A stretch of 64,000 nt of DNA from a virus (lineage: Duplodnaviria; Caudoviricetes), in IMG/VR virus record IMGVR_UViG_3300028833_000120, positions 20,978 through 84,977 of that record, one strand, 5' to 3'. The notes under the pieces were generated by a model, which searched no databases, had not been told where the DNA came from, and saw only the letters and a list, made by a program, of their open reading frames with translations. Below are positions 2,838 to 39,057 of this stretch, in pieces. Each line of letters starts with the position of its first letter. Positions within the stretch are counted from its first letter, which is position 1. The translations under genes and the position numbers were made by a program.

Positions 2838-2884
2838 ATATTAAATATAACAAAAAAGGAGAGATTTTTAAATCTCTCCTTTTT

Positions 2885-4993: not shown

Positions 4994-5063
4994 ATTTTTT
5001 GTTTATATTATATTATTTAAAGTATTTATGAAAAAAGAAAAAGGAGGATAAACCTCCTTTTAA

Positions 5064-5933: not shown

Positions 5934-5936
5934 ATC

Positions 5937-6683
5937 TTAAATTCCTATTCTTTTTTCTGCAATATCGAAATATTTTTTATTCAATTCTATTCCAATAAAA
6001 TCCCTGTTCAAATTTCTGCAAGCGACTCCAGTGGTACCGCTACCCATAGTCATATCCATAACCAAATCACCCTCTTTTGTGTATGTTTTTACAAGATATT
6101 CGAGAAGAGCGATGGGTTTCTGTGTTGGATGCAAATGTGACTTGTCTGTATTGAACTCAAGTATATTGTATGGATATCTCAACGAAGTATCCCTGTCTTT
6201 GTGTCTGTATACACCGTTCTTGTGGTTTTCTGCAAATATCGAAGTTGTTTTACTCTCTTTCGGAAGAGTATATTTTTCACCTTTTATCATCTGTGGATAA
6301 TAAGGCATTTTCTTCTCACCATATCTTGCATAACCGTTTGAAAAAACAGAAATGATTTCTATATTGTTCAACGGTTGGTATGGCGCTTGTGGAAAATTTG
6401 ACTTCGTGTCTTTTTTCCAAATCCAGTCATACTTGAACTCATCGACATTTGACATTCTCAACATAGACGAAAACGGTTCCTTACCAAACAGTATAATGGG
6501 AATGTAATCTTTACGTAGTTGTTTTATACACCCCCACAATTCGTCAAACGGAATCACAAAATCCCATTTTTTGCATCGACTTGTACCATAAGGCAAATCA
6601 CATATAACTGCATCAACTTTCACACCCCATTCAATAAGTTTGTGCATAATATCTATACAATCACCATTATACAGTTCAAACAT
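5937..6683 (-). CDS. Beta-class N6/N4 DNA methyltransferase
   Basis: CDLPY, HPTQKP and DMTMGSGTTG. Confidence 0.9.
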   Translation of the reverse strand: MFELYNGDCIDIMHKLIEWGVKVDAVICDLPYGTSRCKKWDFVIPFDELWGCIKQLRKDYIPIILFGKEPFSSMLRMSNVDEFKYDWIWKKDTKSNFPQAPYQPLNNIEIISVFSNGYARYGEKKMPYYPQMIKGEKYTLPKESKTTSIFAENHKNGVYRHKDRDTSLRYPYNILEFNTDKSHLHPTQKPIALLEYLVKTYTKEGDLVMDMTMGSGTTGVACRNLNRDFIGIELNKKYFDIAEKRIGI

Positions 6684-6684
6684 A

Positions 6685-7419
6685 CTAAAAAAGTTTTATT
6701 GTATTTTCCACCTCATTCATTCTTTGTTCGACAATCTTAAAATAACCACAATCCAATTCAATACCTATAAAGTTACGGTTTGTATTGACACAGGCTACGC
6801 CGGTTGAACCACTACCCATTGTATTATCAAGAACCGTTTCTCCTTCATTGGTATATGTCTTTATAAGATACTCCAAAAGGTCTACCGGTTTCTCATTCGG
6901 ATGTTGTTTGCTGTAATTATCAACACACTTGTATTCAAGGAGATTGTTCGGATACCTTGTTGTATCTCCACCCTCATAATTCCTCTTGTTTCCACCATAA
7001 TAGATTTTACCGTTGGAACAACCCTTTGCACTGTTTGTCGGGATATGTCCATCGGACTTTTGTGGGTAATATTCGTGTTTGTAGAAAACACATATTTCCT
7101 CTATCTTTCTCAACGGCATCCGTTTGGCGTGGAAAAAATTTGTCGTCTGGTTTTTTGACCAATACCAGCAATATTTGAAATTTTTTATATTCGAATTTAT
7201 GAGTTTTGTTGTAAATGGTTGTGACGAAAACAACACAACCGGACAATCGTCCTTTCTTACCCTCTTATAATGATTCCACAACAAGTCAAGGTTTATCTCT
7301 TTATCCCACTCTTGTGCAGTGCAGTTATATGGAAGGTCACACAGAATCATATCAATGGATTTGTCTTGAATGCTATTCATAACATCAAAACAATCACTAT
7401 TAAATAACCTTGTACTCAT
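6685..7419 (-). CDS. Beta-class N6/N4 DNA methyltransferase
   Basis: CDLPY, HPNEKP and DNTMGSGSTG. Ends IKLF. Confidence 0.9.
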   Translation of the reverse strand: MSTRLFNSDCFDVMNSIQDKSIDMILCDLPYNCTAQEWDKEINLDLLWNHYKRVRKDDCPVVLFSSQPFTTKLINSNIKNFKYCWYWSKNQTTNFFHAKRMPLRKIEEICVFYKHEYYPQKSDGHIPTNSAKGCSNGKIYYGGNKRNYEGGDTTRYPNNLLEYKCVDNYSKQHPNEKPVDLLEYLIKTYTNEGETVLDNTMGSGSTGVACVNTNRNFIGIELDCGYFKIVEQRMNEVENTIKLF

Positions 7420-7639
7420 TATTCAAATATAAGTATTCTACTTTACATTTTTCACAAGTTTCCCATTTAATCCATTCGAGTGCCTTTTCAAATGTGTCAA
7501 ATTCAACATAGTCACTCCATTCACCAATATATCCAAAATAATGCCACCAACTCCACCAATGCTTATGTTGTGGGAAATAAGTAACCGAAATCTTTCCGTC
7601 GATTCCCTTTGATTTTACTTTCTTAATTCTATATTTCAT
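7400..7639 (-). CDS. Small hypothetical protein, Trp-rich
   Basis: ATG 7639 (MKYRIKK) lies 1 nt after the upstream MTase stop. Contains YFPQHKHWWSWW. Confidence 0.6.
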   Translation of the reverse strand: MKYRIKKVKSKGIDGKISVTYFPQHKHWWSWWHYFGYIGEWSDYVEFDTFEKALEWIKWETCEKCKVEYLYLNNEYKVI

Positions 7640-7640
7640 A

Positions 7641-8390
7641 CTAAAATAAAGTTTTATTATTCGACTCAGCTTCAATTATTCTCAGTTTTGCAATCTTGAA
7701 AAACCTTTCCTCGATTTCAAATCCTATAAATTTTCTGTTTGTATTGATGCAAGCGACAGCGGTCGTTCCACTACCTATACAATTGTCCAACACCAATCCA
7801 CCTTCCGGACAATACGACTTCACCAAAAATTCAATCAACTCAACCGGTTTCTGTGTAGGATGTATCTGGTCCTGTCTTCTCCATTTTTGTGGAAAGTCTA
7901 AAACCGTGATTGGATGACGTGTTCCTTTGTTGTCAGTCTCGACACCTTTTATCCCATATCCAAGATTATTCACTTTGTTTGGAGTATACTTTCTTTTATA
8001 TGGAGTTCCTTTTGACATCTGTGGTTCATAGTATGCTGCCGACTCACCGAATACAAGTATCATCTCGTGTTTCTTTAACGGCATATACTTTGCCGTAAGA
8101 GGAGACCCACACTTCGATTTCTTCCAAACCATATCATATCTGAAAAGTTTCTCATTTGAGATGGCAAGTTTAAATGCAAAAAGACCGGAACCGAAAAGAA
8201 TGATATTTCCTTTCGGTTTGATTATCCTCTCATATTGTCCCCACAACTTATCGACTGGGAGTTGAACATCCCAATTCATTGATGTTGATTGATAAGGTGG
8301 GTCACAAATGATACAGTCAACAGAATGGTCGTCAATCTTCTTCATCCCTTCAAGACAATCCTCGTTATATATTTTATTAATTTCTAACAT
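7641..8390 (-). CDS. Beta-class N6/N4 DNA methyltransferase
   Basis: CDPPY, HPTQKP and DNCIGSGTT. Ends KTLF. Confidence 0.9.
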   Translation of the reverse strand: MLEINKIYNEDCLEGMKKIDDHSVDCIICDPPYQSTSMNWDVQLPVDKLWGQYERIIKPKGNIILFGSGLFAFKLAISNEKLFRYDMVWKKSKCGSPLTAKYMPLKKHEMILVFGESAAYYEPQMSKGTPYKRKYTPNKVNNLGYGIKGVETDNKGTRHPITVLDFPQKWRRQDQIHPTQKPVELIEFLVKSYCPEGGLVLDNCIGSGTTAVACINTNRKFIGFEIEERFFKIAKLRIIEAESNNKTLF

Positions 8391-9174
8391 ATTAAAATAA
8401 ACTATATTCTTTTTCTTGCAATTCTTCTTTTATTCTCTTACAAGATTTATCATAATATTCTTTGTTCAATTCAAATCCGATAAAATTTCTATTTTCTCTT
8501 ATACAAGCGATAGCAGTTGTACCAGACCCCATGCAGTTGTCAAGAACCAAATCATCCTCGTTTGTATATGTACGAACCAAATATGCAACAAGGTCAACTG
8601 GTTTCTGTGTCGGATGGATTTTAGATTTATCACGATTATACTTCAGTATAGATGTCGGGTATCTATCTCCATTATTGACAGTTATAGTTTCTTTATTGTT
8701 CTTATAGTCATAATTTGTTCCGACACCACCTTGTTTGCATATATAAGGTTTTCCCGTTCCCATCTGTGGGTGGTATGTCATTGCATCATCAGAATTTTTC
8801 ACAAAACAAGCAGCCTTTTTGGAAAACACAAGTATATTCTCATGCTTCTTCAATGGGGCAAAATTACTGTTAAGATGACCTGTTCCGGAATCTTTTTCCC
8901 ATATCCACTCATATTTCAACATCTCAATATTACTTGCACCAAGTATTTTATCGAAAGGAGTCTGGGCAAACAACACAATTGCTCCAGCTGGTTTTATGAT
9001 ACGTTTATATTCAGTCCATAAAGAATCGAGTGGTATGACACTATCCCAACTATTCTTTGTTGTCCCATAAGGTAAATCACAAATGATACAATCAATTGAT
9101 TCATCATCTATCTTCTTCATCCCTTCAAGACAATCCTCGTTATATATTTTATTGATTTCTAACATATTAAAATA
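8335..9174. repeat. 65-bp direct repeat (8335-8399 and 9110-9174, 1 mismatch) spanning MTase gene junctions
   Basis: atcttcttcatcccttcaagacaatcctcgttatatattttatt(a/g)atttctaacatattaaaata is present at both positions. Confidence 0.9.
8392..9165 (-). CDS. Beta-class N6/N4 DNA methyltransferase
   Basis: CDLPYG, HPTQKP and DNCMGSGTT. Ends YSLF. Confidence 0.9.
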   Translation of the reverse strand: MLEINKIYNEDCLEGMKKIDDESIDCIICDLPYGTTKNSWDSVIPLDSLWTEYKRIIKPAGAIVLFAQTPFDKILGASNIEMLKYEWIWEKDSGTGHLNSNFAPLKKHENILVFSKKAACFVKNSDDAMTYHPQMGTGKPYICKQGGVGTNYDYKNNKETITVNNGDRYPTSILKYNRDKSKIHPTQKPVDLVAYLVRTYTNEDDLVLDNCMGSGTTAIACIRENRNFIGFELNKEYYDKSCKRIKEELQEKEYSLF

Positions 9175-9907
9175 CTTTTACTTCATTTTGTACTTCTGAA
9201 ATTCTTCTTTTTGCAATATCGTAAAATCCTTTGTCTATTTCAAATCCTATGAAATCACGACCGAGATTGAGACAAGCGACACCGGTACTTCCACTACCCA
9301 TACAACCGTCGAGTACAACATCACCTTCGTTTGTTGATATGAATACAATCCTCTCCATCAGTAAAACTGGTTTCTGTGTCGGGTGGTTTGTCTTTTCCTT
9401 TGAGTTGTGTGGAAGTGCCGGTATATCAGTCCATACATCCGACAGACTAACTCCGTCTTTCAACATACCTTCGGTGTATTCCTTTCTTTTTGTATCTGGT
9501 TTCACCTTTATATTATTAAAAACCGGTTCGCCTCCAGATTTGGAATAATAAGCAATCGGTTCGTAACCGGAAGCGAGGGAGTGACCCCTCGTATTGTTGA
9601 AACCTCTTTTCCTTGCCCAGATGATTATCCTTTTCTCAATCAGATATTTATCAAGCATGTTGCATATTTTCCTATTCATTTGTCTTGATGTGAAAAGAAA
9701 GATGTTTCCACCGGGTTTCAATACACGAACATACTGCACAATCAAAGACTCAACCCATTCAAGATAACCTTGTTCTGACGACCATTGGTTATCAAACTCC
9801 GCCTCAACAACACCAAAATAGGGCAAATCACAGATAATACAATCTATCGAACAATCTTTTATTTTGTTACGTATTCCGTCGACACAATCTTCATTATACA
9901 ATTCCAT
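9167..9907 (-). CDS. Beta-class N6/N4 DNA methyltransferase
   Basis: CDLPYF, SDVW, HPTQKP and DGCMGSGSTG. Ends VKVF. Confidence 0.9.
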   Translation of the reverse strand: MELYNEDCVDGIRNKIKDCSIDCIICDLPYFGVVEAEFDNQWSSEQGYLEWVESLIVQYVRVLKPGGNIFLFTSRQMNRKICNMLDKYLIEKRIIIWARKRGFNNTRGHSLASGYEPIAYYSKSGGEPVFNNIKVKPDTKRKEYTEGMLKDGVSLSDVWTDIPALPHNSKEKTNHPTQKPVLLMERIVFISTNEGDVVLDGCMGSGSTGVACLNLGRDFIGFEIDKGFYDIAKRRISEVQNEVKVF

Positions 9908-9911
9908 ACAC

Positions 9912-9985
9912 TAAATATAACAAATTACATAAATAACATATACATAAAAAAAAAATTACATAAATAACATATACATAAAAAAAAA
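9912..9985. promoter_or_regulatory. Divergent promoter cassette: TTGTTATATTTA (- strand, 9912-9923) back-to-back with CATAAATA (+, 9928-9935, duplicated at 9959-9966 in a 31-bp tandem repeat)
   Basis: Both motifs recur upstream of many genes. The tandem unit is aaattacataaataacatatacataaaaaaa. Confidence 0.75.
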
Positions 9986-9988
9986 GAT

Positions 9989-10456
9989 ATGATTAAGAAA
10001 TTTGAAAATTTTATAAACGAAAATGCATCAAATGGTATTTTTCCAAAAAAATTACAAGAACATATAGAGTTTATAATACAATCTCTAAAAAAATCAGAAG
10101 ATAAAGATAAAAATATATCTGCTTTCTTTACAAGTACAAAAGATGAAGAAAGAAATGAAATAAAACGAATGTTGGAAAAAGAACTTGGTGATGATTTATT
10201 CATAATCAATAAAGACATTGATTCAACTGAAGATATGGAAAAAACCATTGAAGAAAATAAAGGTAAAGTATTCTATTTCACTCATTTTAAATCAAAAGAA
10301 ATGTTGAAAGTAATATGTGCAACACCATTGAAACACAATTGTGTCATAAACATATGCACAACAAACGAACCAGAAGGAAAACTCTGGGGTGAAATATTTA
10401 AAGAACGTTTTACTTGGATTTGTAACATTTCAGAATTAAAAGATTTATGGAAATAA
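9989..10456 (+). CDS. Putative internal head protein (capsid-targeting N-terminus)
   Basis: N-terminus MIKKFENFINE resembles the T4 internal-protein CTS MKTYQEFIAE. Late motif upstream. Confidence 0.6.
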   Translation: MIKKFENFINENASNGIFPKKLQEHIEFIIQSLKKSEDKDKNISAFFTSTKDEERNEIKRMLEKELGDDLFIINKDIDSTEDMEKTIEENKGKVFYFTHFKSKEMLKVICATPLKHNCVINICTTNEPEGKLWGEIFKERFTWICNISELKDLWK

Positions 10457-10463
10457 ACAAAAT

Positions 10464-10490
10464 AAAAGGAGGTCGATTGACCTCCTTTTA
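10464..10490. terminator. Bidirectional intrinsic terminator
   Basis: aaaaggaggtc-gatt-gacctcctttt between convergent genes. Confidence 0.8.
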
Positions 10491-10495
10491 TTTTT

Positions 10496-11179
10496 CTACC
10501 ATAACGGAATGTCATCAACCTTTCCGTCGAACCTTTCCATATTTCCGGTGTCCCAATTCATTATTTTAGCAGGAATTTCAGTTTCCGGAAGACACATTGA
10601 CACTCCATCCATCCTGAAAAGGTTATAAGAGACGATTTCTGCCCATTTTTTTACCTCTGTGGGGTCTTTACCGAACTTTGTGGTAAAACTCTCCACAACG
10701 GCAGATAAAACGTTCTCACGGGCAAGAAACAATGAATCTTCCTGCCACTCGTATCCATAAGTTGATTTAAGTGCAAGTTCCGCCAATCGGTACCATTCTT
10801 TTTCATCATTGGTTTTTATTCTCTGAAGTTTTCTGTCAAGAATACCAACCCTCTTGTTGATTGGAATCTTCTCACCACTCGAAACATCATAGAGTGTTGT
10901 GAGATATGGTGCTTCACCACAAGTCACTTCAAGAACTTTTCTTTTGATATATTCCTCATCAGAACCTTTATATTCCTCATCAAACATATCATTCATTCTT
11001 TTCACCACCTCAATCGGAGTAAAAACCTCCGCTTTCTCTTTCGTCCTTGCAGTCTGTACATCGACATTCTTTAAGTAACGTGGTACAACTTCATCAACAT
11101 TTACATTGAGTTTTCCACCGGTTGTACGTTCTTCAAGTAAAATTTCTTTTATATTCTTATCTATATTCATTTCAAACAT
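10496..11179 (-). CDS. SAM-binding half of a split gamma-class (Eco57I/type IIG-like) adenine methyltransferase
   Basis: Motif X KAEVFTP, motif I VLEVTCGEAPY and motif II YGYEWQ. No NPPY. Ends IPLW. Confidence 0.75.
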   Translation of the reverse strand: MFEMNIDKNIKEILLEERTTGGKLNVNVDEVVPRYLKNVDVQTARTKEKAEVFTPIEVVKRMNDMFDEEYKGSDEEYIKRKVLEVTCGEAPYLTTLYDVSSGEKIPINKRVGILDRKLQRIKTNDEKEWYRLAELALKSTYGYEWQEDSLFLARENVLSAVVESFTTKFGKDPTEVKKWAEIVSYNLFRMDGVSMCLPETEIPAKIMNWDTGNMERFDGKVDDIPLW

Positions 11180-12039
11180 CTGTCTTTTCTTTTCCTTTCA
11201 AAATCAAATCCATTAACATATTCAAGTATTTCATCTACATCCTCTTCCTCACACCCGACACTAAACAGAAGTTCCCTCTCATTTTCAATCTTCGAGTAGT
11301 CAATATCAGGAAACAATCTCCACACCTTTCTTTTCATATTCCTATCGTCTTGACAAATCCACAGACAAAACCTCATAAGATTGGTATGAAGTAAATTCCA
11401 TACATTCTTTGCAGACTTTTTATCACAGAAACCGAGAACAACCTTCGTTGTTGTATCAGTCCTGAAAAACTTGTTTTCCTCTTCGAGACTCAACACACCG
11501 ACATTCTCCAAAGACTTCTGTGCAATCCACTTTCCGTTTTCCTTATAGTTTGCATAACTAACATTGATAAACCAAGAATATTGGTTCAACTTCTTCAAGT
11601 CTTTTGTTTTATTCCAGTTATAATAGTCCTTATTCCAACTACCATACATAGTGACGGTGTGTTTGTACATCTTCTCTTCTTTATCCATAAGAGAACATAT
11701 CTTTTTTTCTATGTGATTCAGAAGAATATTATCACCAAAATTCAGTCTGAAATCAAAATTCTTTGAACCTTTCTTGCAAAAATAGATTGCTGGGTCTGTC
11801 ATTTGTGTTTCTTGAAACAATACACTATCCACAATCTCTATCCTCTCACATCCGAGTCTTTTCAAGAACGTTCTCTCCCTCTCCATTCTCATATCATACA
11901 AACATTTAGATGGCATAATGAAACAGAGTTTGTCATCAAACACACAAGTACTTGACTTCATTATATTGAAATGAAGCAATCTACTTCCCACCTTATCATG
12001 TCCGTATGGTGGATTGCCCACGATTACATCAAATCTCAT
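11167..12039 (-). CDS. Catalytic/target-recognition half of a split gamma-class methyltransferase
   Basis: Begins directly with motif IV (MRFDVIVGNPPY), followed by LCFIMP and a TRD-like C-terminal region. No motif I. Confidence 0.75.
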   Translation of the reverse strand: MRFDVIVGNPPYGHDKVGSRLLHFNIMKSSTCVFDDKLCFIMPSKCLYDMRMERERTFLKRLGCERIEIVDSVLFQETQMTDPAIYFCKKGSKNFDFRLNFGDNILLNHIEKKICSLMDKEEKMYKHTVTMYGSWNKDYYNWNKTKDLKKLNQYSWFINVSYANYKENGKWIAQKSLENVGVLSLEEENKFFRTDTTTKVVLGFCDKKSAKNVWNLLHTNLMRFCLWICQDDRNMKRKVWRLFPDIDYSKIENERELLFSVGCEEEDVDEILEYVNGFDFERKRKDRCLK

Positions 12040-12043
12040 ATAC

Positions 12044-12066
12044 TAAATATAACAAATACATAAATA
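12044..12066. promoter_or_regulatory. Divergent early(-)/late(+) promoter cassette
   Basis: taaatataacaa-ata-cataaata. Confidence 0.75.
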
Positions 12067-12087
12067 ATATAAATCAAAACAAAATTT

Positions 12088-12474
12088 ATGGAACTTAAAA
12101 ATTTTGAAGAATTTATCAGTGAGAATGTAAATCAAAATTCAGATTTAATATTTTTCTGTAAACATTCTGACTTCTGTACATATTGTCCTCTGTTTCACGG
12201 TGGTAGTAGTAGAACTTGTCACGACCACGAAGGAATCTTTGTATCAAAAGACACAAGAATTGAAAACGGAAACGAACTCGTATGGGTTTGCATAAACGGT
12301 GAATGGAGTTGGCAGAAGAAAGATATAGAACCATCAAAATTCGACAACAGTAAAACTTCAAAAAGAAGAATCATAGACGGTAAAAAATGCAGATTCTACA
12401 AAGGTCATTGGGTTGATATTGATAACAAAGATGTTATAGTGAAAGACTATACAAACGATGTATTTGGTGAATAA
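12088..12474 (+). CDS. Putative internal head protein, Cys/His-rich
   Basis: N-terminus MELKNFEEFISE and a CKHSDFCTYC...CHDH cluster. Late motif upstream. Confidence 0.6.
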   Translation: MELKNFEEFISENVNQNSDLIFFCKHSDFCTYCPLFHGGSSRTCHDHEGIFVSKDTRIENGNELVWVCINGEWSWQKKDIEPSKFDNSKTSKRRIIDGKKCRFYKGHWVDIDNKDVIVKDYTNDVFGE

Positions 12475-12486
12475 AACTTATAAAAC

Positions 12487-12515
12487 AAAAAGGAGGTCAA
12501 ACGACCTCCTTTTTT
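12487..12515. terminator. Bidirectional intrinsic terminator, near-identical to the one at 10464
   Basis: aaaaggaggtc-aaac-gacctcctttt. Confidence 0.8.
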
Positions 12516-12877
12516 ATTGTAGTTGTTCCTTCCAAGTTTTCCCACACTTCCGGCAAGTGTAAACTCGATAAGTGTTGTGAACTTTATGTTTTCCGAACTC
12601 CGTCTTGTTTCCATTTTCATCAAGATATTCTTCCTCATACGAAATTGATGAGTTGTTGTAACAGTTGTGGTATATCTTATCTGGTAGTGAAAACTCTTCG
12701 TTGATTATCATAAGAATCACAAGTGCCCACGACATAAAGACACACAACAATATACCTGGTATCAAAAAACAACTTCGGATGGTCATAGTCTTTATACTCA
12801 CGAATTTTTTTGTTACCGAGCAAAGCGATAACGATACCTATTGTCCAAAAGATTATAAGTGCAAGTATGTTGTTCAT
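12514..12877 (-). CDS. Small membrane protein with a C-terminal CxxC, split over two frames at a T6 run (12764-12769)
   Basis: ORF 12677-12877 supplies TM1 and ORF 12514-12801 supplies TM2 plus CRKCG. A +1 join at TTG TTT TTT G gives about 120 aa. Confidence 0.5.
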
Positions 12878-12884
12878 ATTTTTA

Positions 12885-13184
12885 TTAAAATTTATATGTC
12901 CTACAATCCATCGGTGGATATTTTACTTCCAGAAGTCCCAACACAGACCTTACATTTTTTGATGCTTTCACGGCTTCATCGTAATTGTTATAAACCGCCC
13001 ATTGGTTTCCACCACGTACAACTTCCATTCTTTCGACCGTCATATTGTATCCACAATCGGCGAGGTTCTCCACAAGGAAATCGAGGTCTCTCAAATACCA
13101 CCAGTTCCCATATTTCTTGACAAATCTTTTTTTATTGTTCTTCGGTATCATTGTTCGTTTTATTTTTTGATAAAATATCTTCAA
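12885..13184 (-). CDS. Hypothetical protein
   Basis: ORF in an operon-like arrangement. The start may be the internal MIPKNN. Confidence 0.5.
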   Translation of the reverse strand: MKIFYQKIKRTMIPKNNKKRFVKKYGNWWYLRDLDFLVENLADCGYNMTVERMEVVRGGNQWAVYNNYDEAVKASKNVRSVLGLLEVKYPPMDCRTYKF

Positions 13185-13992
13185 ACTCTTTAATCATTTC
13201 ATCATTTATAAATTTATAACCATCTGCTTTTCTACTCTTTTTAATAAACCAACTAAACATTCTTCTTGTATTTGTATCACAAAAATCTGGCATCGAATAT
13301 GGGTTTGTTGAAACAAATGCTTTTATTACACTATGATAAAAATCATTTTTTTGTATATATAATTCGATTTCTTTACGATTTGCAACTCTAAATGATTTCT
13401 CATCATAGTCCAAATTTTGTAAATAATCATCTTTCCATTCAAAATCTTCATCATACCCAACAAGACTTTTGAAAAAATCATCACGTATATCTTCAAATTC
13501 AACCAAACATTTTCCTTTACAAGTATTTACAACATAAACAACAAACGGCATAATTTTCTTTCCATTTATTGTGATACCTTTTTTTCTTATACCTATTGGC
13601 ATTGTTTCATTACAATGAAACGCTGATAAATCATTCAATTTTATAGAAATATCATATAAACCTATAGCAGTCATTCGTAATTGTCCTTTGTGGTTTCCTA
13701 TGAAATACAATGTACCAAAATCACCCTCTTCAGTTACACCTTCAATCCAAATAAGATTATCACAACGAATATCAAACATATATTCATCATTTAATTTGAT
13801 GCAACCAGAATTTTTTGGATGAAAATCGGTTTCACCACTATCAATGAGTTTATTTTTTTCATAACAAAATAAACAATGTTTATCATCATCGTTTTCTAAA
13901 AACATTTTTGCTGTATCACTAAACTTTGACATCTTCTTCAATTCTGACATTATAGTTTCATCAGAAACTGATAAATAATTATAAATTTTCAT
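13132..13992 (-). CDS. Hypothetical protein
   Basis: 286-aa ORF, visibly more AT-rich than its neighbours. No motif recognised. Confidence 0.6.
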   Translation of the reverse strand: MKIYNYLSVSDETIMSELKKMSKFSDTAKMFLENDDDKHCLFCYEKNKLIDSGETDFHPKNSGCIKLNDEYMFDIRCDNLIWIEGVTEEGDFGTLYFIGNHKGQLRMTAIGLYDISIKLNDLSAFHCNETMPIGIRKKGITINGKKIMPFVVYVVNTCKGKCLVEFEDIRDDFFKSLVGYDEDFEWKDDYLQNLDYDEKSFRVANRKEIELYIQKNDFYHSVIKAFVSTNPYSMPDFCDTNTRRMFSWFIKKSRKADGYKFINDEMIKEFEDILSKNKTNNDTEEQ

Positions 13993-14016
13993 ATTCTTAT
14001 TTTTTTAGTTTATATC

Positions 14017-14769
14017 TTACCACAACCCTTCGACAGGTTCATCAACTTCCTTAATCAATCTTTCATTTGCAAATTTTACATACTCATCAGATATTTCAAA
14101 CCCTATGAAATTCCTTCCAGTCTGTTTTGCCGCCACGGCAGTCGTCCCACTCCCCATAAAGGGGTCGAGTATCAAATCACCTTCTTTCGAAAAAAGGGTT
14201 ATTAGTTTCTTTGCAAAATCAACAGGGAAACAAGCCCCATGAGTTGATGTGTTATTCTGTTTATGAAAACCAGAAATCACATTGTTTTGCATCCCACGAC
14301 CGAAATACGAGTTGTTTATCACACGACCTTTCTTATCGTCACCCTCCAAAATAACAACAAATTCGTAACAAGAGTTCAATACTTTGTCGTGCATCGCCGG
14401 TTGCCCCCCTTTGTGCCAAATCATAATGTCTTTTATATATGGTGAGAAATCACCAAGCAGTCTGAAGAACGCTTCCTTGGAACCCGTGACAATTTGGTAG
14501 TTGTAACACACAATCTTCGACACTCTCAACAACTCTGTCAAAACATCTTTGTGAAAATAATAGTATTCTTCAATAGGAAGGTCATCACCGAAATATTTAT
14601 ACTTCTTACTGAAGTGCTCACCGTGCTCTCTTACAGTATATTGTCCTTCACGGATACGAGTTCTCATGTTATAAGGTGGTGACGTAAGTACCATATCAAC
14701 AGACTTGTCTGGAAGTTTCTTCAACCCTTCAAGACAGTCTTGGCTATATATTTTGTTTATCTCCAACAT
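14017..14769 (-). CDS. Beta-class DNA methyltransferase, probably N4-cytosine
   Basis: Likely start is ATG 14769 (MLEINKIY). TSPPY, HGACFP and DPFMGSGTT. Ends EGLW. Confidence 0.9.
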   Translation of the reverse strand: MLEINKIYSQDCLEGLKKLPDKSVDMVLTSPPYNMRTRIREGQYTVREHGEHFSKKYKYFGDDLPIEEYYYFHKDVLTELLRVSKIVCYNYQIVTGSKEAFFRLLGDFSPYIKDIMIWHKGGQPAMHDKVLNSCYEFVVILEGDDKKGRVINNSYFGRGMQNNVISGFHKQNNTSTHGACFPVDFAKKLITLFSKEGDLILDPFMGSGTTAVAAKQTGRNFIGFEISDEYVKFANERLIKEVDEPVEGLW

Positions 14770-14773
14770 ACAA

Positions 14774-14808
14774 TAAATATAACAAAACATAAATAAGTTA
14801 TATAAATA
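14774..14808. promoter_or_regulatory. Divergent early(-)/late(+) promoter cassette
   Basis: taaatataacaa-aa-cataaata, with an additional TATAAATA at 14801-14808. Confidence 0.75.
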
Positions 14809-14818
14809 AAAAAGAAAC

Positions 14819-15040
14819 ATGATTAAAACATTTGAAGATTTCAGTAGAACAAAAATTGAACCAAAATTATACAGTGGTATATTACAATACAGTGGTGAGG
14901 AAACCACAGGACAACTTATAGTATTTAACAACAATATGTACATATTGTCGGATGAAAATATTTTTGAAGGTAACAACACAATTTTAATCGGTGCCGACGA
15001 AGAGACATTGGTAGACCCTAACACGGTAAAAGAACTATAA
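14819..15040 (+). CDS. Putative internal head protein
   Basis: N-terminus MIKTFEDF. Late motif upstream. Confidence 0.55.
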   Translation: MIKTFEDFSRTKIEPKLYSGILQYSGEETTGQLIVFNNNMYILSDENIFEGNNTILIGADEETLVDPNTVKEL

Positions 15041-15085
15041 GTGATAAACTATAAGACATAAACAAATTATATAAATAAAAAAACT

Positions 15086-15433
15086 ATGATTAAAAAATTT
15101 GAAGAATTTGTAAACGAATCTCTAAACCAATTAGATTTTGAACCAATTTTGTGGGGTGTTGAAATCTTTGATGATGAGATGGAGGATGACAAAGGTATTT
15201 CCGTAACTCTTGAAAGAGGTGCCGGTGGTGGTCGAGAACTTATTGAATCACACTGGAAAGTATATGCAATTGAGGATTTGGATGACAGATGGAACGTAAA
15301 GGCTATCTGCATCGATTCCGAAGATAGAAGATACCAACCAGATGATGAGATTGATTTTGAAGTCAATAAAGACGATGATGTTTGGGACCTTGAATCTTTA
15401 TTGCAAGATGCTCTTGATAAAGAAGGATTCTAG
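15086..15433 (+). CDS. Putative internal head protein, very acidic
   Basis: N-terminus MIKKFEEFVNE and TATAAATA upstream. D/E-rich. Confidence 0.6.
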   Translation: MIKKFEEFVNESLNQLDFEPILWGVEIFDDEMEDDKGISVTLERGAGGGRELIESHWKVYAIEDLDDRWNVKAICIDSEDRRYQPDDEIDFEVNKDDDVWDLESLLQDALDKEGF

Positions 15434-15434
15434 T

Positions 15435-15474
15435 AAAAAAGACAACACATGGTTGTCTTTTTTTGTTATATTTA
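15435..15474 (+). terminator. Terminator hairpin fused to a TTGTTATATTTA promoter
   Basis: aaaaaagacaac-acatg-gttgtctttttt runs directly into gttatatttaatat ATG. Confidence 0.75.
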
Positions 15475-15478
15475 ATAT

Positions 15479-16249
15479 ATGTTGGAAATAAACCGAATAT
15501 ATAACCAAAATTGTCTCGAAGGTATGAAAGAGATAGATGACAAGTCAATCGACTGCATCATCTGTGATTTACCTTATGAGGTTCTCAATAAATCGAATGA
15601 AAACGCCAAATGGGACGTTGTGATACCTTTTGACAAACTATGGGAACAATACAACAGAATAATCAAGGACAACGGTGCTATATTACTTTTTGGACAGGGT
15701 ATGTTCACTGCACAGTTGATGATGAGTAATTCTTCAATGTGGAGGTATAATCTTATATGGAAAAAAGGAAACCGTTCCACTGGTTTCCTGAATGCAAAAA
15801 GGATGCCTCTTCGTAACCACGAAGACATTGTTGTATTCTACAAGAAACTTCCGACATATAATCCACAGAAAACAGTTGGTGCCAAAAATCATTCACGTGG
15901 TTATATGAAAAACGAACAAAAAAACCAATGCTATGGTAAATTTGATGCTTCCTTATCCGAAAATGATTTTTCAGGTATGAAGTATCCGACGAGTATAATT
16001 GATGTTGAGAAAGAACATTGTAAGACATTCCACCCGACACAGAAACCGGTTGAACTTATATCATACTTGATAAAGACTTATACAAATGAAGGAGACTTGG
16101 TTCTAGACAATTGCATGGGAAGTGGAACAACTGCAATCGCCTGTATAAAAGAAAACAGAAACTTTATCGGATTTGAAACAAACGAAGAATATTTTGATAA
16201 AGCAAACAAAAGAATAAATGATGAAAAATCAATAGTAAAATTGTTTTAA
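15479..16249 (+). CDS. Beta-class N6/N4 DNA methyltransferase (inverted relative to the others)
   Basis: CDLPY, HPTQKP and DNCMGSGTT. Ends VKLF. Confidence 0.9.
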   Translation: MLEINRIYNQNCLEGMKEIDDKSIDCIICDLPYEVLNKSNENAKWDVVIPFDKLWEQYNRIIKDNGAILLFGQGMFTAQLMMSNSSMWRYNLIWKKGNRSTGFLNAKRMPLRNHEDIVVFYKKLPTYNPQKTVGAKNHSRGYMKNEQKNQCYGKFDASLSENDFSGMKYPTSIIDVEKEHCKTFHPTQKPVELISYLIKTYTNEGDLVLDNCMGSGTTAIACIKENRNFIGFETNEEYFDKANKRINDEKSIVKLF

Positions 16250-16250
16250 C

Positions 16251-16282
16251 AAAAAAGGTTGGAGTCATCTTCCAACCTTTTT
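16251..16282. terminator. Bidirectional intrinsic terminator
   Basis: aaaaaaggttgga-gtcatct-tccaacctttttt. Confidence 0.8.
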
Positions 16283-17143
16283 TGTTTTCCAACCATATTC
16301 TTTCATTTTCTCGTGAATATACTCCATGTCTTTTTTTGACAGTCCAAACTCATCCATCAACGACTCATCCGAATAGTCCACATTATTGGGTTGTGATGGA
16401 ATCATTTTTAACAGGGATTTAGGACATTTTGTAGATTTTTTGAAAAACATTATTACAAAAAGAACCAAGTCAGTATTCAACCATTCTATAAATTTTTTAC
16501 TGGAGTCCTCACTCGAGAATGTGAAAACGTTCCATTGTCCGTCAGATATTTCCTTATGTGGTGAAAGATTTTCTTGTGTAAATAAAGTTGGCCAGTCCCA
16601 TTCATAATTTCCACCATCACGGACATGACCACGATGAACCGATAGAAGACAATGCCAACCGAATGGTATATTGTATATTTTCTTAACTCTTTCCTCTCCA
16701 TGTATGTCAGCGAGTGACATAAACGACATCTCTTTTAAATCCAAACTTTTATGTTTGGAAATTTTTTCAATAATCTCCTTATTTTTGAAATGTTCCCCAC
16801 CAAACCGGATGTTCTTTACAAAGTCACTCGTTATTCCATATTTTCCTTTCTTTGAAAATGTAAAGATACCGACACCACGTATGATATCAACTGTTCCGAA
16901 TATATTCCTCAAACCTTCATCATATTCAAAACCAGATAGCATCAACGACGAATATTTCTCACAGAATCTTTTATAATGTGGGTCTTTTTCGTTCATATTG
17001 TCGACTACCGATGTCGGGTTTATCAGGCACATAACACTTTCATCATCCATATTGTTATCGTATATAGATTTGGTTATCTGTATATACAAAGGGTCCCAGT
17101 GACCTTGGTATGGTGGATTGCCTACTATAATATCAAATATCAT
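16265..17143 (-). CDS. Second catalytic/TRD half of a split gamma-class methyltransferase, with no adjacent SAM-binding gene
   Basis: Starts MIFDIIVGNPPY, followed by MCLINP. No motif I. Has its own promoter motif upstream. Confidence 0.75.
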   Translation of the reverse strand: MIFDIIVGNPPYQGHWDPLYIQITKSIYDNNMDDESVMCLINPTSVVDNMNEKDPHYKRFCEKYSSLMLSGFEYDEGLRNIFGTVDIIRGVGIFTFSKKGKYGITSDFVKNIRFGGEHFKNKEIIEKISKHKSLDLKEMSFMSLADIHGEERVKKIYNIPFGWHCLLSVHRGHVRDGGNYEWDWPTLFTQENLSPHKEISDGQWNVFTFSSEDSSKKFIEWLNTDLVLFVIMFFKKSTKCPKSLLKMIPSQPNNVDYSDESLMDEFGLSKKDMEYIHEKMKEYGWKTKKVGR

Positions 17144-17190
17144 ATATTAAAAATAACAAACGGAAGATTTTTTTAGTCTTCCGTTCTTAT

Positions 17191-18330
17191 TTATTTCAAT
17201 TTTTCGTGGTTTCCATAGGCAGTCTTTGGTATGATTGCAAGTGTGATTGGGAGGATGGATGCAACACCCCATTTCTGAAGTTCAAGACAGATGTCATCAA
17301 GTGTTGCACCGGAAGATATGTTGTCATCGAATATAACAACATGTTTTCCTTTAAGTTTAAGTCTCATATCTTTCAATTTTGGATTTATTACAAAAAGACC
17401 TTCGATAGACCTTCTGTGTTTATCATCCAAAGACTTGATTTCAAATTTCTTTGCCCTTCCGTTTTCGTCCTTTGTTTTATCTTTACCTCTTCTACCAAAA
17501 TTATGTCTCCTAATTTTTATGAGTTCCTCTATGGCCTTTATCTCATTTTTTTTATCCGTCACATCCCGTGTAGGTCTTCCTCTTTTTCCGATTGCATATG
17601 CAATAGAATCATTCAGTTCATCAACCCTGACCCTTAAATTATAAATGTCTGCATCGAATTGCCAATTCTCAATATCTTTTTGAAGTTTATGTATCTCCAT
17701 GTCTGTAAGACCGATACTCTTTGCAACATCTGTATTAACAACGACATTTTTTATATCTTTGATAAGCAAGTCTGGAATACACTTGATACCCGGTGAATCC
17801 TTGTATCTCTTCATTATATACTCAACCATATCCTTGTTGAAATCACTAGAACTCTGTGGAAAAGTTATTATATCGATTGGATTATCTTTTAAAAGATGAT
17901 ATATGTACAAAGATGTCCTCTTCATAAATTTGTCGATTGAATCAAAGTCTATATTTCTCTTTTCTATATTCTTGAACTTACTTGGGTGTTTCAAGGCCAT
18001 AGAAACTCTCATATCCGATATTTTATATAGGTTGTATGACATCACGTTACTTTTTGGTAGAAGTACTTCATGATATTCAAATTTTTTATCGTCATTGAAT
18101 ATTTCGGTAGATGTTGAATCTGTATCATTCTTACCTGGTGTAAATCTAAAAGTTCTGTCGCTTGAACGACCACGTGACCCGAAAGACCATCCTTCACTGC
18201 ATAAATCAATTTTATCATACCCCATCTCATGTTCCTCTTCCATAAGAAGTTCGATAAAATCAAATATAGACAATGAATCTTCAATTATAACATTATCTAC
18301 AAATTCATCATATGTTTTTATATTATTCAT
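17191..18330 (-). CDS. Type I phosphoribosyltransferase-domain protein with a capsid-targeting-like N-terminus
   Basis: PRPP-binding loop VVIFDDNISSGATL and FPQSSS. N-terminus MNNIKTYDEFVD. CATAAATA upstream on the minus strand near 18355-18362. Confidence 0.7.
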   Translation of the reverse strand: MNNIKTYDEFVDNVIIEDSLSIFDFIELLMEEEHEMGYDKIDLCSEGWSFGSRGRSSDRTFRFTPGKNDTDSTSTEIFNDDKKFEYHEVLLPKSNVMSYNLYKISDMRVSMALKHPSKFKNIEKRNIDFDSIDKFMKRTSLYIYHLLKDNPIDIITFPQSSSDFNKDMVEYIMKRYKDSPGIKCIPDLLIKDIKNVVVNTDVAKSIGLTDMEIHKLQKDIENWQFDADIYNLRVRVDELNDSIAYAIGKRGRPTRDVTDKKNEIKAIEELIKIRRHNFGRRGKDKTKDENGRAKKFEIKSLDDKHRRSIEGLFVINPKLKDMRLKLKGKHVVIFDDNISSGATLDDICLELQKWGVASILPITLAIIPKTAYGNHEKLK

Positions 18331-18401: not shown

Positions 18402-19622
18402 TTAAAACAGAGGAACATCGTGTGACATGCTTATGTCGATTGGTGAATATCCCATAGCCTCCACAATTCTGTTCATTGGTCCAAGAATAAGCAGGTCGAA
18501 CATTTTGTCGTAATCGATTTCAAAACCACTTGCCATATCCATTGGATAATTACCGGCTGGATATGAAAACGCCTGTATAGGTTCTTTCATCTGACAGTCT
18601 ATATAATAGTCAACATTCCCACGTTTTTCGATGATTCCACCTTTCGTGAATCTGACTTCTTGATGTTTTCTTACATTTGCAATGTCAGAAACCTTGATTT
18701 CACAACATTTCCAGTAAGTATACCTTTGTGTTGGTTTTATATATATCACACACAGTTTATCACTGTCAACAAGTGCCGTATATTTTCTTTTATACTTTTC
18801 ATTACTATTCAACAACCAGTTATAGAATGATGCACCCTGCACAGTCACCATCGCCTTTTGCATAAGTTCAATTTCACCAACGTCGGATAAGACATACTCT
18901 CCATATTTGTTCATTCCTTTGTTAACTGAAATCGTCTCAAAGTTCTGCATCATAAAACTTTTCTTGACTGCTTTCATCTGTTTGACAAAACCCTCGATTG
19001 TGAATTTTTCTTGTTTGAATATCCACTTAATCAAATCAGTCATCTGCTTCTTGACCCAAGTCGAACTAGATGTCTGTGCAATCTCAATACCGGTCGGTTT
19101 GATTTTAGTGCAAGAATCATAGTAAACATTTGGCTCAGCCCAAGTGGTATTCTTCACATACTTTTTCTTAGCGAGCCAGATACCAGCCTCATTGTATGCC
19201 TCCAACTCGAAGTCGAGAATATTAGGTGTTCCCTGCTTGGCGGCATAGTCCTCATGTATCTTCTTCAAGAAGTCCTTCATAAACACACGGTCAAGAGTAA
19301 GACAGAACTCACGACCTGCTGGTTCTATTTTATCAATCTCAAAATCATACTTTTCTTTATCGATTGAATCGACATCAAAATATTGTCTTGCATCATCTTC
19401 AGTCGGATAACCACCGGAAGACACATACACGAATTCTTTCTGGTCATTCGACTTGTTAATCTTGGTGAGTCTCCACACGTCGTGTAACATCCAATCAGTT
19501 GAATTTACAATCTCATAAAATGAACAGTATACACTATCAGTATCTATGTATCTACTTATAGGTGAGATAGTTACATTTTTATCTGGGATAAACACCCATT
19601 TTTTTATGTGTTTTTTCATCAA
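18402..19622 (-). CDS. Family B DNA polymerase, C-terminal part (palm motif C and thumb)
   Basis: YIDTDS, AKKKY and KPTGIE. Ends VPLF. Overlaps the N-terminal part in the +1 frame. Confidence 0.85.
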   Translation of the reverse strand: MMKKHIKKWVFIPDKNVTISPISRYIDTDSVYCSFYEIVNSTDWMLHDVWRLTKINKSNDQKEFVYVSSGGYPTEDDARQYFDVDSIDKEKYDFEIDKIEPAGREFCLTLDRVFMKDFLKKIHEDYAAKQGTPNILDFELEAYNEAGIWLAKKKYVKNTTWAEPNVYYDSCTKIKPTGIEIAQTSSSTWVKKQMTDLIKWIFKQEKFTIEGFVKQMKAVKKSFMMQNFETISVNKGMNKYGEYVLSDVGEIELMQKAMVTVQGASFYNWLLNSNEKYKRKYTALVDSDKLCVIYIKPTQRYTYWKCCEIKVSDIANVRKHQEVRFTKGGIIEKRGNVDYYIDCQMKEPIQAFSYPAGNYPMDMASGFEIDYDKMFDLLILGPMNRIVEAMGYSPIDISMSHDVPLF

Positions 19623-21342
19623 TAATCCAACCTTTTTGTGCCCATAGATTCATAAGTCTCTCGGCGTTCAAGATGGCGTGCTTACCTTGTTTCGTAACAG
19701 ATTCAGCAATATTCTTGTTATAGAAATAAAAACCGGAGAATCCGAAAGCGCCATAGATACCGTTAATTACGACCTTTGTACCAAGCTGATAGTTGTTGTA
19801 GATGTCTGCCTGTGTAGTACAGAAAGTAAGAACAACATCCATTTGTTTACCAATCAAATCACCAAGGTCGTTCTTTTTCATATAGTCTTCTATCTCTTCT
19901 TGACTTGCACCATTGTGCATAAGGTCTTTCAAGTCATAGTAGCACTGTGTGTATTTGAACGATGTCTTCTTGTATGCCTTTCTTTTGAAATAAAGGTCTG
20001 TGATAATCTTCTTCAAATTACCGTCCTCTTTCTCATAGACTGCACCGGAAGCACATACAATATAACCCTTATCTCTCCACTGTTGTTTCAGTTCCTCATC
20101 ATCTTCGGGAAGCATCTTGACAAGTGTTTCCGGACCGATATTGAACTGTCTCATCAAAGACGGATAAAGTGAGGCGTAGTCGTTACATGTGCAATACTTG
20201 TGAAGACCTGGAACAGGCTGCTTGACGAATGCCCCTTCATATTTCTCACCATCACCTTTCTTCTTTGGTTTCGGAGAAACTGCAAGGACACGACCTTGTT
20301 CAGCAAACTTCTGTCTTAAAAGATTTTCAGGAATATATGTAGTAGAGAAACAATCCATTGCACGGATATGACCCAACCATGCAGTGGTGATACCACAAGT
20401 CAATGCATTACACTTCTCGTGGATGAGTTTTACGAGACCACAGTCGATAGCGTTGTAATACACATACTTTTGAAAGTTATTATTGAACATATCATCGAGA
20501 CTCTCACTGTGCTGTACTTTTTTGATACCACAGAGTTTCTCCCCGATATAGTCGAGTTTGTAATTCTCATTGGAGTTCCAAGTCCATTTCTTGTATGCTT
20601 TCAAATAGTCGATAAGACCGACGTGACATGGACGCTCAAACTGACCAGTCATTTTATGAGTAGGTGACGAAATGTTTATATTTATTTCAAGTTTTTTCGC
20701 CCTGTTTATGATATACCTCCAGTCATATTCCTCAAAGTTCCAACCGGTCATCATAGCCATATTCGGAACAAGTTTGTTCAAGAAGAAATACAACATGTCA
20801 TATTCCGTATTAAAACAACGGAAAGCGAACTTGAACTTACGGTTTACTTGTGCAAAATGGTCGTCAATTTGCTTTTGAATATCCTCAATTTGTTTCCTGT
20901 TTAAGTTCTTGCCGGAAGAAAGAACCATGATAGTATCGTTTGGACAACACACACCGATAACCGTTATCGGTTTATCTGCCTTTTCTGGGTCTGGTTTTCC
21001 CTCTTGCATCAAGTTCTCAATATCGATAAAAAACATTTCAGGAAGATTATATGAGAATATCCTTTCCTTTACATCTTCCGGAAGATTGTCAACAATCTCA
21101 TACATCCTATATCTATTCAAGACATGTTTTGGATTTGTGAGATTTAACTTGTGTTTCCACACCTTGTCTTTGTTCCAGTTTTTGACCGTTCCACCGGGTT
21201 CATCTTTTTTATCGATGGGTTCTGTGAGCCAAGTGTACCAATCCTTTTCTTGAATTGGAATCACATCGATGTGTGTCTTGTGGTCATCCCCCCAATAGGA
21301 GATTTCCAAATTTGTTCCGTTTTGTACTAAATCTAATAACAT
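19579..21342 (-). CDS. Family B DNA polymerase (gp43-like), N-terminal part (exonuclease, motifs A and B)
   Basis: FIDIE, GWNFEEYD, YKLD, YNAID, YEGAFV, DYASLYPS and KVVINGIYG. Confidence 0.9.
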   Translation of the reverse strand: MLLDLVQNGTNLEISYWGDDHKTHIDVIPIQEKDWYTWLTEPIDKKDEPGGTVKNWNKDKVWKHKLNLTNPKHVLNRYRMYEIVDNLPEDVKERIFSYNLPEMFFIDIENLMQEGKPDPEKADKPITVIGVCCPNDTIMVLSSGKNLNRKQIEDIQKQIDDHFAQVNRKFKFAFRCFNTEYDMLYFFLNKLVPNMAMMTGWNFEEYDWRYIINRAKKLEININISSPTHKMTGQFERPCHVGLIDYLKAYKKWTWNSNENYKLDYIGEKLCGIKKVQHSESLDDMFNNNFQKYVYYNAIDCGLVKLIHEKCNALTCGITTAWLGHIRAMDCFSTTYIPENLLRQKFAEQGRVLAVSPKPKKKGDGEKYEGAFVKQPVPGLHKYCTCNDYASLYPSLMRQFNIGPETLVKMLPEDDEELKQQWRDKGYIVCASGAVYEKEDGNLKKIITDLYFKRKAYKKTSFKYTQCYYDLKDLMHNGASQEEIEDYMKKNDLGDLIGKQMDVVLTFCTTQADIYNNYQLGTKVVINGIYGAFGFSGFYFYNKNIAESVTKQGKHAILNAERLMNLWAQKGWIIDEKTHKKMGVYPR

Positions 21343-21473: not shown

Positions 21474-22082
21474 ATGTGCAATACATACGAAGACTGGTAT
21501 GAAAAAGAATTTAACAAACATGAATCATTACTAGATGAAGAAATTGTCCTAAAGAATCATAAACTTGTTGATGAAAATGGTGTCGATATTTCAAAAAAGA
21601 AAAGTTCCGAAAAAACAGTAGAGGAAAGAATAAAGACATCAAGGTCGTTAAAAATCAAATATAACAAATGGAACCAAGTAGACTTCACAGAAGACAACTA
21701 CCAACAGGATAAGATAACAATAGACAAAGACTATTCCGAACAAAAAATGTCATCCTTCGACGATGTGGAGTTTGAACAGAAGTTCCATGAGATAATCAAA
21801 AATTCAAAATATAAAGCGATACTACTTGACGATGATTGTGAAAAGGTGGTCATCAATTATCAAATTATAAATGACATACTTCTATACATTTATGCACGTA
21901 TGAAAAACGAATACACATTGTCAAGAATATTTGTAATGGTCTGTGAATATTGTGGAATTAACATACAGACAATGTGGAAAAGACTAAGTTCATACATACA
22001 AAAAACCATACTTGAAGAACTCTCGGAATATAGTCCATTGGCAAGTTTGGAATTAGATAAAGAAGAAAACCAATTATTTTAA
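21474..22082 (+). CDS. Possible late-transcription coactivator (gp33-like C-terminal domain)
   Basis: C-terminal IFVMVCEYCGINIQTMWKRLSSYIQKTILEEL resembles the gp33 core pattern. Ends NQLF, like a clamp-binding tail. Confidence 0.4.
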   Translation: MCNTYEDWYEKEFNKHESLLDEEIVLKNHKLVDENGVDISKKKSSEKTVEERIKTSRSLKIKYNKWNQVDFTEDNYQQDKITIDKDYSEQKMSSFDDVEFEQKFHEIIKNSKYKAILLDDDCEKVVINYQIINDILLYIYARMKNEYTLSRIFVMVCEYCGINIQTMWKRLSSYIQKTILEELSEYSPLASLELDKEENQLF

Positions 22083-38580: not shown

Positions 38581-39057
38581 TTAAAACAATGTTTCTTCCT
38601 CTTTTTTATTTTTTGTTTCTTTTTTATTTGTCTTTTTAACTATGACACAATCTTTATTATCAAAAAAATTCTTTTTTATAAGGTCAAGTGTTTTAGTAAT
38701 AGTTTCTTCGTCAAACATATATGCTTCCTCCAACTCTCTCATCCCAATCTCGTTTATCTCCATATATTTCTCCAAAACACAATCCTCATATTCACTGAGG
38801 ATTTTATCCTTCTTTTTCTTTTGTGAAATTTTCAATTTCAAGAAAGGAGGTAAATCCGTGTATCTTGTTGCAAGCATTGCCACAAGATTAGAAGAAAGTT
38901 CTGGGTCGGAATCAAGATTATTTACAAGATTACACTGAATCGGATATTGGGCAGAAAACAGTCTCTTTAACATAAACGAGTGCTTTCTTTTGTCTACACT
39001 CGACACTGCACCGGAATTTCTGTGACAGAAACAATTTAATACTTCGAATAGTTCCAT
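38581..39057 (-). CDS. Probable clamp-loader small subunit (gp62-like)
   Basis: LFEVLN...SFMLKRLFS...N pattern. Ends ETLF. Confidence 0.45.
   Translation of the reverse strand: MELFEVLNCFCHRNSGAVSSVDKRKHSFMLKRLFSAQYPIQCNLVNNLDSDPELSSNLVAMLATRYTDLPPFLKLKISQKKKKDKILSEYEDCVLEKYMEINEIGMRELEEAYMFDEETITKTLDLIKKNFFDNKDCVIVKKTNKKETKNKKEEETLF

Follow-up and report, generated by a model that had tools for sequence, protein, structure and literature searches.

In Type I restriction-modification systems, a constant HsdM subunit is combined with alternative HsdS specificity subunits. Here, we describe three genes, termed A, B1 and B2, in a stretch of 64,000 nucleotides (hereafter the window; bases 20978-84977 of the 84,977-bp viral record IMGVR_UViG_3300028833_000120, Caudoviricetes), which, with a probability that we put at roughly 65%, encode the parts of a two-subunit gamma-class N6-adenine methylase with one shared A. 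Since the record is only 31% complete according to CheckV, the window would be part of a phage genome of perhaps 270 kb.

Both two-polypeptide cytosine-C5 methylases and shared methylase subunits are already known, and databases list both halves of the enzyme described here under generic names. In the Type IIB enzyme BcgI, an A2B1 assembly, a constant methylase subunit is paired with an exchangeable specificity subunit, as described in PMC3592470. The whole catalytic domain lies in one subunit in Type I enzymes and in BcgI, whereas in the phage the catalytic NPPY loop is part of the same chain as the recognition domain. Furthermore, PMC3404938 describes M.AquI and M.EcoHK31I as cytosine-C5 methyltransferases that are active from two separately encoded polypeptides. 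In these enzymes the break falls at motif IX, or within or close to the variable region, while the phage break separates the cofactor half from the catalytic half of an N6-adenine enzyme; moreover, alternative partners are not described there, whereas the phage has two B genes.

Single-chain Eco57I-domain proteins of approximately 625-665 amino acids (aa) from Streptococcus, Prevotella and Enterococcus (e.g., P0133) show the same motif order (X, I, II, III, IV, recognition domain), but in one polypeptide, in contrast to the separate genes, the reversed order and the two alternative C-terminal halves of the phage. Bacterial two-gene pairs such as those of Finegoldia magna (303-308 aa plus 341 aa; profiles PDLC03390/PDLC03375) have the same break, with B starting at MKKFDFVIGNPPY. 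In these pairs, however, one A precedes one B, followed by a T5orf172-ResIII helicase gene, whereas in the phage B precedes A and there are two B genes. No description of the bacterial pairs as a split enzyme was found in the literature. MmeI (Type IIL), the best structural match of A, is a single chain with 9% identity over the aligned part. According to PMC9973331, DnmA/YeeA of Bacillus subtilis is an MmeI homologue flanked by the helicase YeeB and the T5orf172 protein YeeC; this dnmA-yeeB-yeeC layout resembles the context of the bacterial A and B genes, but DnmA is a single chain. A split N6-adenine methylase of this kind was not found in the literature either, within a partial coverage that makes this weak evidence for unpublished status. 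What sets the phage enzyme apart is the position of the cut, with SAM binding on one side and catalysis on the other, and, in this phage clade, a single A alongside a varying number of B genes in reversed order.

Joint architecture of A and the B genes

The three open reading frames (ORFs) are as follows:

10496-11179, minus strand: A, S-adenosylmethionine (SAM)-binding half with motifs X, I, II and a III-like motif; 227 aa, C-terminal IPLW tail
11167-12039, minus strand: B1, catalytic half from motif IV (NPPY) onward plus recognition domain; 290 aa
16265-17143, minus strand: B2, second catalytic half plus recognition domain; 292 aa

The initial annotation of this DNA had described A as an ORF with motifs X, I and II and an LW tail, and B1 and B2 as genes that begin at motif IV (M.FD.IVGNPPY), lack motif I and diverge beyond their catalytic start. 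All of these traits were recovered. In A, we found KAEVFTP (X), LEVTCGEAPY (I), YGYEWQ (II) and the C-terminus DDIPLW, together with a further stretch, NLFRMDG, that is read as motif III; the names X, I, II and III are our own assignment, by comparison with gamma-class motifs. Most database gene calls for A use the second ATG (11170), which yields 224 aa. Across 32 A-family sequences, the SAM-motif residues E51-P55, L83, E84, T86-E89, P91, E144 and D191 were invariant, and LEVTCGEAP, YGYE and MDG were invariant or nearly so, consistent with predicted SAM-binding motifs I-III.

B1 starts with MRFDVIVGNPPY and B2 with MIFDIIVGNPPY, and the ORFs and the alignment placed motif IV at the beginning of both. 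NPPY occupies residues 9-12 in each protein, and the invariance of N9, P10 and P11 in 26 sequences points to a catalytic motif. B1 and B2 could be aligned only over their first 57 residues, with 37% identity, after which the alignment ends; in a wider alignment, they also have a common C-terminal pattern, and both continue into a TaqI-like recognition domain.

With regard to family relationships, A has approximately 5000 homologue clusters of similar length, without a Pfam domain and very well conserved; sequence searches against Pfam, PHROGs, NCBIfam and solved structures returned no significant match. A did match the PADLOC profile PDLC03390 (MTase_II, A-type half; E 9.7e-50) in two stretches, the best of which places residues 75-200 on positions 139-268 of 327, while bacterial A proteins span the whole profile. 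Some A homologues (P0046-P0068) carry N-terminal extensions of 100-150 residues with repeated VSHE-like units, and the 907-aa protein P0121 has two tandem A-like domains, the first without the EVFTP and CGEAP motifs, and no B. For B1, 25 homologue clusters were found, most of them of 290-308 aa. Of the 102 representatives of B2 relatives, approximately one third begin with the NPPY motif; in others, 70-160 further residues precede it (the motif-I consensus was matched in 1/102), and still others form the end of longer proteins, of 815-1754 aa. Bacterial B proteins were recovered with a profile made from B1, B2 and related sequences; B1 and B2 are therefore distant relatives of these proteins. 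A protein search of the own record with B2 did not recover B1, but the B profile did. The search of viral contigs for B relatives returned 8 loci, the short pattern being too unspecific.

The AlphaFold model of A (predicted local distance difference test, pLDDT, 91.2; predicted template modelling score, pTM, 0.89) gave no Foldseek match at E <= 0.001. In a full structural scan, gamma-class enzymes came first, with MmeI (5hr4) at Z 9.9 and a root-mean-square deviation of 2.7 over 144 aligned residues; lower matches, at Z 5.4-7.7, which is the middling range of the tool, were LlaBIII (7.7), DrdV (7.1), the M subunit of EcoKI (6.3), CamA (6.3) and PglX. The B2 model (pLDDT 90.5) matched 38 chains in Foldseek at E <= 0.001, all of them CamA, BrxX/PglX or M.TaqI. 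A class I methyltransferase fold related to solved gamma-class enzymes was thus found for both proteins, for A via MmeI and for B2 via Foldseek.

The two halves came together when both were aligned to the single-chain Streptococcus protein P0133 (628 aa). Residues 31-218 of A aligned to residues 68-281 of P0133 with 41% identity, and residue 1 of B1, like that of B2, aligned to P0133 M290-KFDVVIGNPPY. In the joint alignment of A and B on P0133, the junction showed neither overlap nor gap, and the break lies just before motif IV. The motif order X, I, II, III, IV-VIII and C-terminal recognition domain was found only for A and B jointly; the catalytic domain is not contained in one polypeptide, its halves being separate genes on the minus strand with B before A. 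Because of these alignments and the structural matches, we assign A as the putative cofactor-binding half, and B as the putative catalytic half with a TaqI-like recognition domain.

A complex prediction, proposed as a check in the initial annotation, was carried out for A and B2, and the pair docked with a score of 0.86 in each of three runs, compared to 0.01 for the best of three controls; the score mark was reached by 58/80 solved complexes and by 2/110 mismatched pairs. At least 93% of the contacts were common to the runs, and the partner pLDDT was at least 81. The tightest predicted contacts, between residues 80-85 of A and 3-8 of B2, set strand beta1 against strand beta4. Since the halves of a split gene can pass by their likeness to solved single-chain methylases, the model shows fit, not binding.

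The ratio of nonsynonymous to synonymous substitution rates (dN/dS) was 0.09-0.18 for A and 0.07 for B2 (against the copy in the related record G006), and for B1 versus its relatives the proportion of nonsynonymous differences was 0.25, with that of synonymous differences saturated. These values indicate purifying selection on all three genes. In the same genome pairs, A keeps 75-76% identity and B 61-63%, B diverging faster.

In the mechanism that we propose, A would supply strands beta1-beta3 with motifs X and I-III for SAM, while each B would contribute strands beta4-beta7 with the catalytic NPPY loop, as well as a C-terminal recognition domain of its own. Beta1 of A would pair with beta4 of B, building one active site from two polypeptides, and B1 and B2 would share the single A, so that two enzymes that differ in sequence specificity would result.

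Gene content in relatives, gene order and transcription signals

The own record contains one A and two B genes. As the initial annotation had pointed out for the window, B2 is without a partner of its own, and neither the window nor the rest of the 84,977-bp record yielded a second A. Among relatives, G007 (363 kb, 96% complete) has one A and one B of the B2 type, with a PF01555 methylase gene in between; G006 has one A and one B2-type gene; and in both G011 and G012, one A is accompanied by two B hits, of which one in G011 is a partial gene at a contig end. Every examined record with an A at least 71% identical also has a B (the own window, G006, G007, G011 and G012). Close relatives thus differ in their B genes, but each has a single A.

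B1 lies 5' of A, and its stop codon overlaps the A start in ATGTTTGAAATGA, with an overlap of 13 nt from the first ATG of A and of 4 nt (ATGA) from the second. The claim that the NPPY gene precedes the motif I gene, and that this is not a simple frameshift, was borne out, given that no single frameshift joins halves arranged as B before A.

The signals around the three genes are listed below:

12037-12055, minus strand: promoter-like motif TTGTTATATTTAGTATATG ending in the B1 start codon, exact match
17141-17159, minus strand: promoter-like motif TTGTTATTTTTAATATATG ending in the B2 start codon, exact match
10459-10494, minus strand: terminator-like hairpin 3' of A, 16 pairs followed by a T-rich tail
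16251-16277, minus strand: inverted repeat GGTTGGA...TCCAACC followed by TTTTTT, with the B2 stop codon in the loop; read from the sequence
17159-17185, listed on the plus strand by the terminator scan: hairpin between the upstream gene 17191-18330 and B2

The 19-nt motif TTGTTATWTTTARTATATG, whose last letters are the start codon, occurs at 12 sites in the window (at most 3 mismatches), compared to 0.42 expected, and none of 100 shuffles reached 12. It is also present at several other methylase genes of the window; A has no copy of its own there. An own promoter at each B had been claimed, of which the exact and enriched copies at the B1 and B2 starts stand as observed, while we only infer that the motif acts as a promoter. 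A motif TTGTTAT(A/T)TTTA(A/G)TAT abuts start codons and is conserved in relatives (L003-L005, L011), which suggests promoters whose transcripts have little or no leader. The terminator scan did not list the inverted repeat at 16251-16277.

In the relatives L003, L004, L005 and L011, A has its own motif copy, and in L005 and L011 a hairpin follows the B1-type gene. Since each of the three genes forms a unit with its own motif copy in relatives, the B1-A overlap in the window is a local change, the usual state being three independent small units. In the window, B1 would be co-transcribed, and probably translationally coupled, with A, and B2, which has a promoter-like motif and hairpins of its own, would be transcribed separately.

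The split in bacteria, A without B, and rival explanations

The wider distribution of the two halves was examined in the best 80 of at least 583 bacterial relatives of the A-like protein of phage locus L015, and in the best 80 of 474 viral relatives. In the bacterial sample, A and B are fused in 18/80 loci; in 15, A is immediately followed by a small B with the same starting motif; and in 25 it is immediately followed by a protein of more than 900 aa, a giant helicase-methylase. Another 12 ORFs with a B part follow downstream at a distance of 0.2-2.3 kb, on the same strand, and 11/80 loci have A only; in 69/80 loci, a B either shares the ORF of A or follows it on the same strand. In Finegoldia magna, the same break separates adjacent genes of 308 and 341 aa in the order A then B, and the helicase gene downstream has a T5orf172 domain. 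As this break recurs in many bacterial loci, the A/B split appears to be ancient or recurrent, and common, rather than special to the phage studied.

The one giant partner examined by Pfam combines a ResIII helicase with an Eco57I domain, and a viral homologue of the giant gave a MUG113 hit (E 0.00031) under the Pfam cut-off. In the loci L101 (5413-10366), L183 (5944-10908) and L160 (5986-11283), an A-like gene stands before a ResIII-helicase/Eco57I protein of approximately 1330 aa, or before B and a T5orf172-helicase gene; the giant of L101 has a weak MUG113 hit. Bacterial A is listed at NCBI as 'restriction endonuclease subunit M', and bacterial B as 'Eco57I ... domain-containing protein'; PADLOC has separate profiles for each half, as well as one for the giant as 'REase_MTase_IIG' (Type IIG). 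A search for stray B genes in 5 bacterial genomes with an A-only locus gave candidate hits in open frames of 356-1415 aa.

Several observations weigh against the reading of A, B1 and B2 as parts of one methylase with a shared A. The Pfam Eco57I family (PF07669) scored B1 with 21.5 bits (residues 1-17) and B2 with 19.8 bits (residues 3-16), both under the gathering cut-off of 25.3, and did not match A; likewise, neither B1 nor B2 matched the PADLOC profile PDLC03375 (MTase_II, B-type half) at E <= 0.001. The Eco57I match of the giant partner begins upstream of NPPY, and beside this partner, in 25/80 loci, A may not be filling a missing half. Bacterial A showed no similarity to the stretch of the giant before NPPY, and a structure-sequence search of that stretch found nothing. 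Moreover, all 71 of 71 loci (L012-L082) of phages of approximately 57 kb and 49% GC have an A-like gene and no B within 10 kb. This lone gene of the 57-58-kb phages encodes approximately 260-270 aa, has the same end point as A and lies among small early genes near the replicative helicase gene. No Eco57I hit and no B-profile hit was obtained in G001, G005 (both 100% complete) and G002 (91%), and no credible (D/N/S)PP(Y/F/W/H) methylase ORF was found in the genomes of G001 and G005; more distant large-phage relatives have no B next to A. Since A-like genes stand alone in complete phages, A is not only a partner of B, and the A family appears also to function, at least elsewhere, without a phage-encoded B.

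These lone occurrences, together with the giant partner's own stretch before NPPY, keep alive the alternative that A serves a separate purpose, for which a phage B is not required (e.g., pairing with B-type modules or restriction-modification enzymes of the host, or anti-restriction), its closeness to B1 being secondary. The 11/80 bacterial loci with A only, the far larger number of homologue clusters of A than of clusters of B1 or representatives of B2, and the 907-aa tandem protein without B also speak for it. We nevertheless consider it unlikely for the phage studied, given that in its clade each examined record with A at 71% identity or more has a B, that B1 overlaps A, and that B accompanies A in 69/80 bacterial loci. 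In addition, B lacks beta1-beta3, and no route is known by which a class I methyltransferase would bind the cofactor without these strands. A variant in which A is a portable, near-universal cofactor-binding adaptor that fits many B modules, so that A-only phages pair it with host B modules, including host restriction-modification enzymes, while the phage studied has a changeable B set held at the replication fork by the LW tail of A, is offered as speculation with rather long odds; if it were true, incoming phage DNA would be methylated at whichever sequences the host itself recognizes.

That only B1 and A form an enzyme, B2 being inactive or in need of a second A in the unsequenced part, is decidedly improbable. 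B2 lies 5 kb away from A in its own transcription unit, and with a record approximately 31% complete, a second A elsewhere in the genome is possible, a point that also counts against the shared-A reading. On the other hand, the nearly complete G007 combines a single A with a B2-type gene as its only B, a dN/dS of 0.07 indicates strong purifying selection on B2, and B2 docks on A in the predicted complex; furthermore, as all three genes are independent units with a motif copy each in relatives, the distance of B2 from A says little. We rejected the reading of the three ORFs as pseudogenes, i.e., decaying fragments of broken single-chain methylase genes, on the grounds of gene order, conservation and dN/dS. 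Each ORF does have half the single-chain length, but B precedes A in a manner that no single frameshift joins, intact orthologues are present in many contigs, dN/dS values are 0.07-0.18, the same break point is kept in bacteria and the B genes start at their own promoter-like motif, all of which leave decay with a very small chance. The initial annotation's proposal of one shared A with swappable B modules is thus favoured by the single-chain match, the docking of B2 and the single A with varying B; not covered by that annotation are the frequency of the split in bacteria and the A-like genes of complete phages without a B.

Methylase island, C-terminal tails and implications

The GC content of the window is 30-40%, and its first 17 kb (window 2070-17143) form a methylase island with eight PF01555-type genes, one D12 (Dam-like) gene, A, B1 and B2. 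Other genes of the window code for a family B DNA polymerase, which is split, and for a tail sheath stabiliser like that of T4. The further features of this region are:

2070-2837, 5937-6683, 6685-7419, 7641-8390, 8392-9165, 9167-9907, 14017-14769 and 15479-16249: PF01555-type methylase genes
5064-5933: D12 Dam-like gene
19579-21342, minus strand: polymerase ORF with the exonuclease and the start of the polymerase domain
18402-19622, minus strand: polymerase ORF with the rest of the polymerase

The N-terminus MLEINKIYN is common to several PF01555 genes of the island. The two polymerase ORFs (window 18402-21342, minus strand) overlap by 44 nt, and in the relative L009 the C-terminal part of the polymerase is likewise an ORF of its own. 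Upstream of B2, a 379-aa protein (17191-18330, minus strand) has a weak C-terminal phosphoribosyltransferase match (E 2e-4) under the cut-off. A DNA search of the region against deposited phages matched only PF01555-type methylase genes, with nothing for A or B.

C-terminal tails of the form [LIVMF][FW] end 12/62 predicted genes of the window, with approximately one expected by chance in a rough estimate from amino-acid frequencies. The bearers are 8/9 single-chain methylases, A, the C-terminal piece of the polymerase (18402-19619), and two unassigned genes at 21474-22082 and 38581-39057; B1 and B2 have no such tail. In L009, the same tails occur on the polymerase and methylases. The tail may be a shared docking peptide, and that of A is a putative sliding-clamp binder, by analogy with the C-terminal tails of T4-type polymerases.

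The A/B enzymes would join at least nine other methylases of the phage, and presumably shield its DNA from host restriction. The phages that carry A alone raise the question of what role half a methylase has by itself, and the natural split point is potentially useful for building split methylases. If the A/B pairs are active, they would constitute a natural N6-adenine methylase whose active site lies across two polypeptides, with the cofactor half shared by exchangeable halves. This would explain thousands of proteins that are unnamed or called 'restriction endonuclease subunit M' or 'Eco57I domain-containing protein', and would correct annotation pipelines and methylome assignments that mistake either half for a complete enzyme or for a fragment. 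In such a system, the gain of a single small gene would be enough for a phage to acquire a further methylation specificity or to exchange one for another.

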